From Gammaproteobacteria bacterium (lineage in GTDB: Bacteria; Pseudomonadota; Gammaproteobacteria; RBG-16-57-12), in NCBI GenBank assembly GCA_021647245.1, contig JAKIVC010000002.1:64184-128183 (forward strand): a stretch of 64,000 nucleotides of DNA, in the 5' to 3' direction. Positions 61,297 through 64,000 of the stretch are shown one piece after another. The translations under genes and the position numbers were made by a program. A model generated the notes under the pieces. That model was not told where the DNA came from, made no database searches, and saw nothing but the letters and a program-made list of their open reading frames with translations. How positions within the stretch are numbered: the stretch's first letter is position 1; each line of letters opens with the position of its first letter.

Positions 61297-62178
61297 ATGA
61301 GCCAAAAAGACGCCCCCTTTAAAGTTTTTGTAATTAAATGGCTACTGCACCTTTTCGCCTTGCTGCCACTACGTGCGGCGCATGCTGTTGGCCATCTATT
61401 GGGGCTGTTTTTATGGCGCTTTTCAGCAACCACTCGTCGGGTGGTGTTAAAAAATATCGCACTCTGTTTTCCTGATATGAGTAAGTCATCACAAATGAAA
61501 CTGGCTAAAGCGAATCTGCTTGAAACCGGTAAAAACATCACTGAGTTGGGGGCGATTTGGCTCTGGCCAGCAGAAAAAACACGACAACTGGTAAAGCAGG
61601 TGAGTGGCGCTGAGCTAATTGAGCAAGCGAATAAACAGCAGCAGGGGATTATATTTGTCGCACCTCACCTCGGGTGCTGGGAGTTAATTGGCCTATACCA
61701 GCCGATGCTCTGCCTCTATCGGCCACCGCGAATGAAACAGCTAGACCCCGTCATCAGAAAAGCACGCACTCGAAATGGCACTCGCTTGGCACCCACCGAT
61801 GCCAGAGGTGTGCGTGCGATACTGCAAGCGCTGCGCAAAGGTGAGGCAACCGGAATTTTACCTGATCAGGACCCGGGGCGTGGCCATGGCCTGTTTGCCC
61901 CCTTTTTTGGTGTAGAGGCAAACACCATGACTCTGGTATCCAAATTGGCAATTAAGAGCAAGGCAAAAGTGATCTTTACCTATGCAGAGCGGTTACCAAA
62001 AGGTGAGGGTTACCACTTACACTTTATACCGGCGAGCGATGAAATTTACGGTGATCATTCCGCCGGTTATATGAATCAGCAAGTCGAGCAGTTGATACGT
62101 CAAACACCGAACCAATACATGTGGAGCTACAAGCGCTTCAAGAGCCGGCCAGAGGGTGAAAGGGGTGTATATGATTAA
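61297..62178 (+). CDS. lpxL: lipid A biosynthesis late acyltransferase (LpxL/HtrB family)
   Basis: 293 aa with an N-terminal hydrophobic anchor, the acyltransferase H-x4-E motif (APHLGCWEL) and ILPDQD. Confidence 0.8.
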   Translation: MSQKDAPFKVFVIKWLLHLFALLPLRAAHAVGHLLGLFLWRFSATTRRVVLKNIALCFPDMSKSSQMKLAKANLLETGKNITELGAIWLWPAEKTRQLVKQVSGAELIEQANKQQQGIIFVAPHLGCWELIGLYQPMLCLYRPPRMKQLDPVIRKARTRNGTRLAPTDARGVRAILQALRKGEATGILPDQDPGRGHGLFAPFFGVEANTMTLVSKLAIKSKAKVIFTYAERLPKGEGYHLHFIPASDEIYGDHSAGYMNQQVEQLIRQTPNQYMWSYKRFKSRPEGERGVYD

Positions 62179-62203
62179 GCTCGAACAGTTAAAAAATATG
62201 GCT

Positions 62204-62320
62204 CTATGTGAAATAGAGCGGGTAATTGAACTTTAGTTTTCCACAAAGAAAGTAAACCATATTGATGAAATTATCGATATTACGATAGCCTCTTGCTCGA
62301 CGTTTGGCGAGCTGAACCTT
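62204..62320 (-). pseudogene. 3' remnant of a DDE transposase gene (family uncertain, ISL3-like C-terminus)
   Basis: The minus-strand translation KVQLAKRRARGYRNIDNFINMVYFLCGKLKFNYPLYFT* resembles the conserved ..K.....K..A.G(Y/F)RN..NF......  tail of IS transposases. No upstream body is present. Confidence 0.4.
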
Positions 62321-62321
62321 G

Positions 62322-62341
62322 CTCCCAAATCCCCAGATAGG
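62322..62341 (+). repeat. solo terminus related to repeat family A
   Basis: ctcccaaatccccagatagg compared with the family A end cccctaatccccagataga. The 12-mer atccccagatag is identical and the flanks are similar. Confidence 0.4.
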
Positions 62342-62789
62342 ACTCCCTCCGACCTCTAAGAACCATTAACGAGGCTGTAGAAAAACCCACCCAGAGCCCC
62401 TTCCTACCTGCCCAGTGTCTATTCCACATCACTTTCAATGATAATCATCTTGTAGTCCGACATTGACCTGCCAATAGCGGTATTGGCGGCTATTGAGGGC
62501 TTTATTTGGCCTTTTCTTTACACTCAGTGGATTAGTTGTCCATAGTTGGCCAGCTTCTCTATATAGTGCACTATAAGCAGTAGCCTTGTACTTTGCTTTT
62601 TCCTCTCAGGCTAAAACGATTGAGTCCTTTATTGCTGCACATATTGGCGAATACGGGCTGACCGCCATGGACGCAAATGTGCCTTAGATTCTTAAAGATC
62701 AAGCCATATAGAAAACAATAGACCTCTAAATACATTATGTACAGACTTGACCCCTTTACTTTATCTGACCCCTTTATAAAATAAAAAGA

Positions 62790-63080
62790 ATGGTCAGCCA
62801 AAAAGTTGCCGTTGAAGAAGTGTCACCAACAAAAACAGAGGCTTATAATGAGGCCTCTGCACGTTTTATCCTTCACATTGATGGTTATGCTCACAACACA
62901 TCAATGACGCGATGCTTTGGTGGGTACATGTTTGAATACATTAATGTTGAGTTAATTGATGTAAGAACAAATGAAACAGCTTTACACTATTCAAATTCTG
63001 GCTATTCTGAAAACTGTCCGCCTTTATCAGGTACAATTTTTACTGATGTAGTTGAATTGGTCTCCGAAGTATGGGAATAG
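62790..63080 (+). CDS. orphan small protein (candidate integron-cassette ORF)
   Basis: 96 aa ORF in an AT-rich region with no recognisable family. Its stop lies 1 nt before the attC-like site, which is the typical cassette geometry. Confidence 0.4.
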   Translation: MVSQKVAVEEVSPTKTEAYNEASARFILHIDGYAHNTSMTRCFGGYMFEYINVELIDVRTNETALHYSNSGYSENCPPLSGTIFTDVVELVSEVWE

Positions 63081-63081
63081 C

Positions 63082-63172
63082 ACATAACACGGCGCTACAC
63101 CTGACTGCCCAAAGCGGCGCCGCTCGTGCCTCGCTCTGCCACTTTGGGCAGCAGGTGAGCTAAACGTTATGT
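63082..63172 (+). mobile_element. integron attC-like recombination site
   Basis: R'' is ACATAAC (63082-63088) and R' is GTTATGT (63166-63172); they are perfect reverse complements. The spacers acggcg / taaac are unpaired. L'' gctAcacctgActgcccaaagcgg pairs with L' ccactttgggcagcaggtgagc, leaving two unpaired extra A residues in L''. A central variable loop completes the R-box / unpaired spacer / L-box with extrahelical bases / variable-loop architecture. Confidence 0.7.
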
Positions 63173-63844
63173 GTTTTTACATGGTCGGGGCCATGAAGAA
63201 ACAAGCCCATCAATGTGCTCGTGAAGATCTGGATTTATATTGTTCCACATGGGGTCAAGCACAAAGTCAATACCTTCTCTACGTGCGAGTTTTGCGGCAG
63301 GAACAAAATCACTATCTCCAGCTATGAGAATTATTTGGTCAACCGATTTTTTGTATGCCAGTGAAGAAATATCTAGGCCAATTTTCATATCAACACCTTT
63401 TTGCCTAGCCTCGTATTTAACATCGCCTTCGGAAAGTTCATCGATTGAAATTTTGCTATTTAGCAGTTCTTTAGTTTTCTTCGCATTTATTACCCAATGA
63501 CCATCATCGGCTATTCTCCCGAATCGTAGGGCTACTTTCCTGAATCGCTTTAATTCTTGGTGAAATTCATTGCGAAATTTCGCTTCAGGAGTATCCCCAA
63601 AGCTAAATCCTTTTTTGGTAACAGGATTCTGCGCCCGCTTCGCAAGAGGAGGGCAGTCATAGAAGAAAATCCGATATAGCTCCTTCTTTTTGACTCCCTT
63701 GCTATTTACTTGTCGTAAATTACGCAGAAGACCGCTATAGAGGTCTCTTGCAACTTGGTTTGGAGATTTATCGCGCCAACCTGGATAGAGTGCTCGATAT
63801 CGTTTAATGAAGTAACTGCCGTCCACAAGTATCGCTGATTTCAT
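63167..63844 (-). CDS. NYN (LabA-like, PIN-related) domain protein
   Basis: 225 aa with AILVDGSYF (N-terminal Asp), QKGVDMKIGLD and ILIAGDSDFVPAAKLAR, the NYN acidic motifs. Its stop codon (TTA on plus, 63167-63169) is the TT-A of the attC R' core. Confidence 0.8.
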   Translation of the reverse strand: MKSAILVDGSYFIKRYRALYPGWRDKSPNQVARDLYSGLLRNLRQVNSKGVKKKELYRIFFYDCPPLAKRAQNPVTKKGFSFGDTPEAKFRNEFHQELKRFRKVALRFGRIADDGHWVINAKKTKELLNSKISIDELSEGDVKYEARQKGVDMKIGLDISSLAYKKSVDQIILIAGDSDFVPAAKLARREGIDFVLDPMWNNINPDLHEHIDGLVSSWPRPCKNT

Positions 63845-63866
63845 ATAAGCCTCTGTTTTTAGGCAT

Positions 63867-63924
63867 AAAAAAGCCCCGGATTTCGTGAGCCTCGCTATTG
63901 TTGGAGGCCCGTACTTTCCAGGGC
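63867..63924 (-). terminator. terminator-like structured element 22 nt upstream of the NYN start codon
   Basis: On the minus strand, GCCCTGGA...(inner hairpin GCCTC-CAACAATAGC-GAGGC)...TCCGGGGC is followed by TTTTTTA. RBS AGAGG and the ATG come next. Confidence 0.4.
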
Positions 63925-64000
63925 GCTATTCAACTTTGATTATGGTATATACACTATTCATAGTCAATGAACAAACATAATCGGGTAGCCAAGGGTCTCT

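Follow-up and report, generated by a model that had tools for sequence, protein, structure and literature searches.

A genuine integron attC site, as indicated by its structure, by an independently built covariance model and by a family of related sites, lies near the right end of the DNA analysed here (the window, a stretch of 64 kb). The site, referred to as attC1 in the following, is very probably part of a small integrase-less remnant that consists of a truncated cassette, an inverted NYN module and an attC-targeting intron. The host is an uncultured gammaproteobacterium represented by three metagenome-assembled genomes (MAGs). In the scenario that we favour, attC1 would belong to a cassette, now without its 5' third, that once encoded a lipoprotein of ~160 aa. 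Exactly at the attC1 crossover, an inverted NYN-nuclease module with its own promoter would begin; it would end in a second R''-type box, and a group IIC-attC intron, a retroelement targeting the bottom strand of attC sites, would have inserted into this second box at GT/T, opposite to the array. The remnant, without integrase, attI and Pc, would be of CALIN/SALIN grade, and its separation from an integron platform may have occurred by rearrangement or deletion. We do not think that the locus is the start of a working array. All features are listed in Table 1.

Table 1. Features at the right end of the window, with positions counted from its first base; a slash marks a crossover or insertion point.
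Feature	Position	Strand	Basis or remark
Lineage-specific non-coding DNA, 596 bp	62179..62774	.	From the lipid A acyltransferase gene to the truncation point
5'-truncated lipoprotein gene, cassette 1	62775..63081	+	Homologue comparison
ORF96, 96 aa	62790-63080	+	ORF table
attC1 (complete attC site)	63082..63172	top strand = +	Sequence, DNA folds, covariance model, siblings
attC1 R'' box, ACATAAC	63082-63088	+	Sequence
attC1 unpaired spacer ACGGC, R'' side	63089-63093	+	DNA folds of both strands
attC1 L'' arm	63094-63114	+	Carries extra bases A63097 and A63104
attC1 variable centre (loop)	63115-63141	+	
attC1 L' arm	63142-63160	+	
attC1 unpaired spacer TAAAC, R' side	63161-63165	+	DNA folds of both strands
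attC1 R' box, GTTATGT, exact complement of R''	63166-63172	+	Sequence
attC1 predicted crossover	between G63166 and T63167		attC layout
Inverted NYN module	63167..63979	-	From TTATGT right after the crossover to the ACATA half of the second R''
NYN-domain gene (PIN-like nuclease, LabA/DUF88), 225 aa	63167..63844	-	Pfam PF01936, E 6e-11
NYN promoter and structured 5' leader	63845..63967	-	Promoter scan, leader conservation
Terminator-like hairpin and U-run in the NYN leader	~63867-63929	-	Conserved
NYN promoter TTGACT-17-CATAAT, sigma-70-type	63967..63939	-	Predicted, 10/12 matches
Left half (ACATA) of the putative second R'' box ACATA/AC	63975-63979	+	Split by the intron
Putative group IIC-attC-type intron, last 21 nt (domain VI end)	63980..64000	-	Continues past the window

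The bottom strand of an attC site extrudes as a hairpin, which is the form seen by the integron integrase (IntI). The features that IntI recognizes are the R box, the unpaired spacer, extrahelical T residues and the variable loop, and strand exchange takes place at G/TT of R'. A sequence-only reading of this DNA had described an element of 91 bp that begins with ACATAAC and ends with its exact complement, contains non-complementary spacers, and has arms that pair save for two extra A residues in L''. All of this was confirmed. The site is 91 nt long with exact core AAC and GTT, the two spacers did not pair in the fold of either strand, and the L''/L' arms paired apart from the two extra A residues, which become extrahelical T residues on the bottom strand. 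As the extrahelical bases lie solely on the '' arm, the bottom strand of attC1 would be the recombinogenic one. Folded as single-stranded DNA, this strand reached -28.8 kcal/mol (z = -5.6; none of 200 shuffles was as good), compared to -25.4 kcal/mol for the top strand. A heptamer of the form NNNNAAC with its exact complement 50-160 nt away was found at seven places in the 64-kb window, only one of which, attC1, showed a strong fold. The same reading had correctly pointed out a single compensating deviation from the core consensus RYYYAAC/GTTRRRY: the third base of R'' is A instead of a pyrimidine, with a compensating T in R'. R'' boxes of the type ACATAAC or GCATAAC are also present in L074, L079, L087, L004, L102 and L103, and judged from these sequences, the deviation at position 3 is a trait of the attC1 family and not peculiar to attC1.

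An Rfam search of the window returned nothing; Rfam does not contain an attC model. A covariance model, R2, was built from ten attC sites of other genomes, from which attC1 and its two closest siblings were excluded. On the plus strand, R2 scored attC1 at 55.5 bits (E 1.3e-16), and on the minus strand at 29.3 bits, i.e. 26 bits lower; the second-best match within the 64 kb had 15.4 bits. When applied to a class 1 integron of a Providencia plasmid, R2 found the attC sites of aac(6')-Ib4 (43.4 bits) and qacG2 (39.4 bits), both of which attC1 outscores. A covariance-model check of the kind proposed earlier was significant with R2, and the attC site with cassette geometry is upheld by its structure, the R2 score and the sibling sites described below. 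A general attC model (A2), based on a MAFFT alignment of length-variable sites, was dropped, as the 3' halves were misaligned.

Siblings were searched for with the pattern CTGCCCAAAG-N15-45-CTTTGGGCAG in one genome per species, which yielded two relevant kinds of match amid unrelated ones. One kind comprises full-length (91 nt) siblings with 92% identity in a Ca. Thiodiazotropha MAG (L079) and 87% identity in a Chromatiales MAG (L036); in both of these Gammaproteobacteria the site comes after an unrelated gene. The other is a subfamily of 85-88 nt with members in genomes of Methylobacter luteus, Thiogranum, Bacterioplanoides, Methylococcaceae, Burkholderiales and Nitrospirae. The member in Methylobacter luteus (L063) is one of eight attC sites, all on one strand and spaced 300-900 bp. 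Next to this array, and divergent from it in the canonical manner, is a homologue of intI with 54% identity to IntI1, and the first bases of every cassette (TTRRRY) complement its own R'' box. Arrays of family-related sites were also found in L087, L020, L036, L102 and L103. The alignment of the family shows compensatory changes in the arms, with an L helix that is 96.5% paired, and the outer R-box positions are frequently unpaired. Such a mismatch is expected, as these positions belong to the adjacent cassette. A BLAST search of plasmids with attC1 gave no match, and a metagenome scan for the attC1 subfamily gave 0 hits. By analogy with known attC sites, attC1 would work, or would once have worked, via IntI recombination of the folded bottom strand at G/TT.

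The pattern search also listed dispersed repeats that have only the scan 10-mer in common with the pattern. A MAG of Ca. Nanopelagicales (JBBQAY01) carries more than 20 copies of a palindrome of ~60 nt, GAGTTA-CTGCCCAAAGTGGGG...CCCCACTTTGGGCAG-TAACTC (L006, L012, L015 and ~20 other loci), and a Chlamydiota MAG carries a 64-nt palindrome; L023, L045, L048, L053 and L057 were listed alongside.

ORF96, the 96-aa ORF to the left of attC1, stops 1 nt upstream of the site, as previously observed. It had been regarded as an orphan, which turned out to be incorrect. While no match was obtained in Pfam, NCBIfam or PADLOC, more than 120 homologues were found. Nearly all of them are ~160 aa long, cover 100% of ORF96 and have an LxGC lipobox as well as a signal peptide. 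The last 96 residues of this lipoprotein family are equivalent to ORF96, whose start is an internal Met. Homology between the window and full-length lipoprotein genes (tblastn, blastn) begins only at ~62775-62781; cassette 1 is without ~60 N-terminal codons, signal peptide and lipobox included, and without its cassette start. Because homology begins only at ~62775, cassette 1 is 5'-truncated, and therefore the array does not start at cassette 1, contrary to the earlier proposal that an array begins here. A TTATGT at 62737 was considered as the left end of cassette 1 and ruled out by the truncation at ~62775. It is preceded by A, not G, and is probably a chance match (chance ~4% within 150 bp upstream).

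Full-length lipoprotein genes are found as cassettes in two metagenome contigs, L102, which has three sites with ACATAAC R'' boxes, and L103, which has eight co-directional small ORFs. The junction between the stop codon and R'', TGGGAATAGCACATAAC, is identical in the window, L102 and L103. Past R'', the attC sites of the three are unrelated, with 51-53% identity in global alignment, which is about the level of unrelated sequences. Hence, the same lipoprotein gene is followed by three unrelated attC sites, and homology stops exactly at R''. Another homologue, 59% identical, was found in Ca. Thiodiazotropha endolucinida (L104:10001-10483), in a prophage-like region with terminase and primase and without an attC site; therefore, the lipoprotein family travels on more than one kind of mobile element.

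Related genomes (L090-L095, ~86% identical) align to the window as far as 62177, the final base of the lipid A acyltransferase gene, where the alignment ends. Downstream of this gene, the relatives carry glmS, glmU and the atp operon. In the window's genome, the lpxL-like/glmS synteny is broken and glmS is followed by other core genes, and therefore a rearrangement breakpoint lies at the locus. The glmS side was ruled out as the other end of an insertion, since core genes and no array end were found there. Across 62200-64000, the GC content falls from ~0.50 to 0.38-0.45. Between the acyltransferase gene and the truncation point, no ORF, coding remnant or intI trace was detected and no match was obtained in the databases searched; likewise, plasmid BLAST with the left 611 bp gave no match. 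Where lipoprotein homology stops, TGACCCCTTTA is present twice (62748-62758 and 62766-62776, 18 bp apart), and this doubling might mark a microhomology junction or one terminus of an uncharacterized element. A Tn3-like inverted-repeat end (GGGGTCAGATAAAG..., 62746-62772, minus strand) was rejected as a candidate, having neither a partner repeat nor another copy. In one of the relatives, part of the lipid A acyltransferase gene is duplicated: a copy of 151 bp (L090:11674-11824) with 81% identity to window 61849-61999 is situated beyond a retropepsin-like ORF, which some relatives have at the same spot and others lack.

The next gene had been placed in the sequence that starts at G/TT. This holds for the DNA, which forms a new module from T63167 onwards; the gene itself is encoded on the minus strand, with a sigma-70-type promoter of its own. 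It ends in TAA, complementary to 63167-63169, and this stop codon thus overlaps the TTA of G/TTATGT, so that ORF96 and the NYN gene are convergent. A PADLOC search with the NYN protein gave a weak NYN match (E 6e-6), and no antitoxin gene accompanies it. In the 5' leader (63845-63935, minus strand), a two-tier hairpin is followed by a U-run that immediately precedes the ribosome-binding site. Both L108 and the more distantly related L106 have conserved this leader, with one compensatory pair; Rfam searches with the leader and its flank gave sub-threshold look-alikes only. The leader could be an attenuator or another cis-regulator. In L106, the NYN gene and its leader are located among ordinary genes.

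Three metagenome assemblies (L108-L110) contain the NYN module with 89% nucleotide identity over 63184-63977 (blastn). Upstream of 63184, the GTTATGT box is common to the window and these assemblies, and the left neighbours before the box differ. The boundary of the module is thus G/TTATGT in two different contexts, as predicted for a recombination boundary. Moreover, the first six bases of the module are complementary to the R'' box that closes it, a property of every cassette in the Methylobacter luteus array.

The module ends 893 bp downstream of attC1 with the left half of a putative second R'' box, ACATA/AC, which is the heptamer predicted from R' of attC1. We infer the identity of this box from 5 nt and the target preference of the adjoining intron, an element that the sequence-only reading had missed. 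In L001, a sister assembly from this species with 100% identity, the sequence extends 249 bp beyond the window. In this extension, group II domains V/VI (L001:200-269, equivalent to window 64049..63980) were detected with RF00029 at 49 bits, compared to a gathering score of 40 (E 2.8e-8), and upstream of them lies a maturase C-terminus, 65 aa of which match proteins with PF08388. The ~270 nt of intron are 81.5% identical to introns of class 1 integrons on hundreds of plasmids. In one such integron (L003), the related intron is located between catB3 and qacEdelta1, opposite to the cassettes, and is inserted at GT/TAGAC in the bottom strand of the catB3 attC. Other related copies end with ...CCGAT/TAGGC, the 3' exons being TAGGC or TAGAC. 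The 3' exon of the window intron on the minus strand is TATGT, i.e. T+RRRY of GT/TRRRY, like that of all related copies. Its orientation is opposite to the array, and it is inserted at the canonical GT/T of an R''-type box.

It was previously shown that group IIC-attC introns insert at R'' in TTGT/T, in the bottom strand and opposite to the cassettes (PMC7923331, PMC3001079), that they also occur in integrase-less clusters (PMC3001079, PMC7923331), and that they can target terminator-like hairpins as well (PMC7923331). The DNA identity over 270 nt and the insertion site indicate that the window intron is most likely of the group IIC-attC type. All three assemblies of the species, plus a Logan contig, break in or at the intron, because it is multi-copy. 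The suggestion of at least two cassettes running rightwards is only partly sustained: the R'' half-box is there, whereas no complete second attC is visible in the window and the box is cut by the intron. A full second attC beyond the intron is plausible. A metagenome scan for the junction between the NYN promoter and R'' gave 0 hits. A related IIC-attC-type intron, 5'-truncated by an IS21 element (istA/istB), was observed in L097 (546-3388) and L098, where it is followed by small reverse-strand ORFs resembling cassettes.

A tblastn search with IntI1 detected no intI in the 63 kb to the left of attC1, in agreement with the statement that the window contains no integrase. Neither intI nor attI nor Pc was found next to the first cassette, and the locus does not classify as a complete integron. 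It had also been proposed that the integrase was lost in the debris on the left side. No intI remnant was detected in 62179-62789 by tblastn or six-frame translation; instead, a decayed intI lies to the right in L108-L110. In these assemblies, which are intron-less, 120 nt separate the NYN module from the 3' end of an intI that has suffered an internal deletion (L108:234-1075; also L109, L110). This gene retains regions corresponding to IntI1 residues 16-90 (47% identity) and 288-330 (77% identity), its catalytic core is gone, and it lies on the same strand as NYN, a non-canonical position. The R''-like box in L108-L110 is TACTAAC. The 120 nt that follow showed no significant structure (z = -0.9) and no R2 match, and no attC was found on either side of the module. 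Given the sequences of L108-L110, the NYN module may never have had a full attC. A cluster look-up of the deleted IntI of L108 returned no member from the window's MAG. Adjoining the G/TTATGT start of the NYN module in L108, the motif AACGAG[TG]CTGTAG[AG]A[TA]AAC is present in two direct copies and one inverted copy (L108:2013-2190). This motif might be an attI-like site; according to the attC model, it is not attC.

Could the hairpin be a chance look-alike of an attC site, i.e. a bidirectional intrinsic terminator or a REP/MITE-like palindrome between convergent genes? Its position between convergent ORFs, with TGTTTTTA directly 3' of it, would suit this explanation, and attC hairpins can impede transcription too. 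However, an intrinsic-terminator scan did not call attC1, the T-run is present on one side of the hairpin only, and a 91-nt element with a stem of ~35 bp, interrupted by internal loops and asymmetric bulges, is at odds with it, as is the fact that this type of hairpin has a single copy in the 64-kb window. In addition, real class 1 attC sites scored lower than attC1 with the independent model, other genera have near-identical copies after unrelated genes, and cassette arrays contain related members of the family. We consider this explanation extremely improbable and effectively refuted by the model score and the sibling sites. A different origin of a real attC site, which we regard as unlikely, would be secondary-site insertion (SALIN/attG-type): a single lipoprotein cassette would have inserted at a GTT at the 3' end of a resident NYN gene. 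The NYN gene would then not be a cassette and would have sat just downstream of an old intI, there would be no second attC, and the intron would simply have targeted an R''-like box that has a small hairpin. The arrangement in L108-L110, with NYN next to the deleted intI and without attC on either side, is consistent with such an event, as is the location of the NYN gene and its leader among ordinary genes in L106. Furthermore, IntI inserts cassettes at GWT sites of genomes with high frequency, small CALINs and SALINs are common (bioRxiv 10.1101/2022.09.11.507474), and IIC-attC introns are able to use terminator-like hairpins (PMC7923331). The module, however, opens with TTATGT and closes with its complement ACATAA, as a cassette does, and the intron is located exactly at the canonical GT/T of an R'' box; a deletion has removed the left junction of the lipoprotein cassette, where the target site would be seen.

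It is also conceivable, if doubtful, that the array is intact and active to the right, with a complete second attC, more cassettes and perhaps a functional intI past the intron. The two R'' boxes are identical, arrays are the typical location of IIC-attC introns, and the breaks of all three assemblies in the intron leave room for more cassettes. On the other hand, cassette 1 is truncated and there is no platform on the attI side, the intron-less relatives have a dead intI and no attC after their R''-like box, and two metagenome scans gave no extension. Finally, the locus might be a preserved intermediate in the intron-mediated reshuffling of genes and attC sites, although we think that the chances of this are slim. 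In this process, intron copies residing in different R'' boxes would recombine homologously, and with the subsequent loss of the intron, whole attC sites would be exchanged between cassettes. The idea extends a model of cassette formation that was reportedly put forward by Leon and Roy. Sites of the attC1 type (87-92% identical) follow unrelated genes elsewhere, and the neighbouring R'' box holds an IIC-attC intron. The break between gene and attC at R'' coincides with the intron insertion point, which fits an intron-mediated exchange of attC sites and is not proof of it. We keep the integrase-less remnant as the most probable description of the locus.

Compared to the attC sites (59-base elements) of environmental and chromosomal integrons, as covered by IntegronFinder (Cury et al. 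2016, PMC4889954), attC1 has the same R''/R' heptamers with AAC/GTT, the same unpaired spacer, extrahelical bases on the '' arm only, and a variable terminal structure within 91 nt. Likewise, it comes right after a cassette ORF, and the next module starts from G/TT. It differs by the A at R'' position 3 and by having no integrase nearby. Like CALINs and SALINs (PMC4889954; bioRxiv 10.1101/2022.09.11.507474), the locus combines an attC site with cassette-type genes in a chromosomal position beside core genes, with no intI within 10 kb on the left, the side that lies in the window, and no antibiotic-resistance genes. Unlike them, it shows one complete attC and a truncated first cassette, and the synteny breakpoint favours rearrangement over a clean secondary-site insertion.

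The intron in the window resembles group IIC-attC introns (S.ma.I2 and relatives; Leon and Roy 2009; PMC3001079; PMC7923331) in its GT/T target in R'', its opposite orientation and its multiple copies. The identity of 81.5% to the class 1 integron copies applies to domains V/VI and the maturase C-terminus, as the intron is known here from 21 nt in the window and ~270 nt in the sister assembly, on the 3' exon side alone. Chromosomal integrons contain inverted, self-promoted cassettes, which often carry toxin-antitoxin or defence genes. The NYN module matches these in its reversed gene, its own strong promoter and its nuclease-type product (NYN/PIN-like), but differs in that it has no antitoxin partner, gives a weak PADLOC match and also occurs outside integrons. 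Every part of the locus belongs to known kinds, and nothing in it falls outside known categories.

Taken together, an uncultured gammaproteobacterium carries integron-derived DNA beside its core genes, and a multi-copy attC-targeting intron explains why all assemblies of the species break at this locus. The locus enlarges the set of environmental attC sites by a family with ACATAAC/GTTATGT cores that several genera share. It also shows clearly that one gene can be paired with different attC sites and one attC type with different genes, and such re-pairing is relevant to the unsolved problem of cassette formation.
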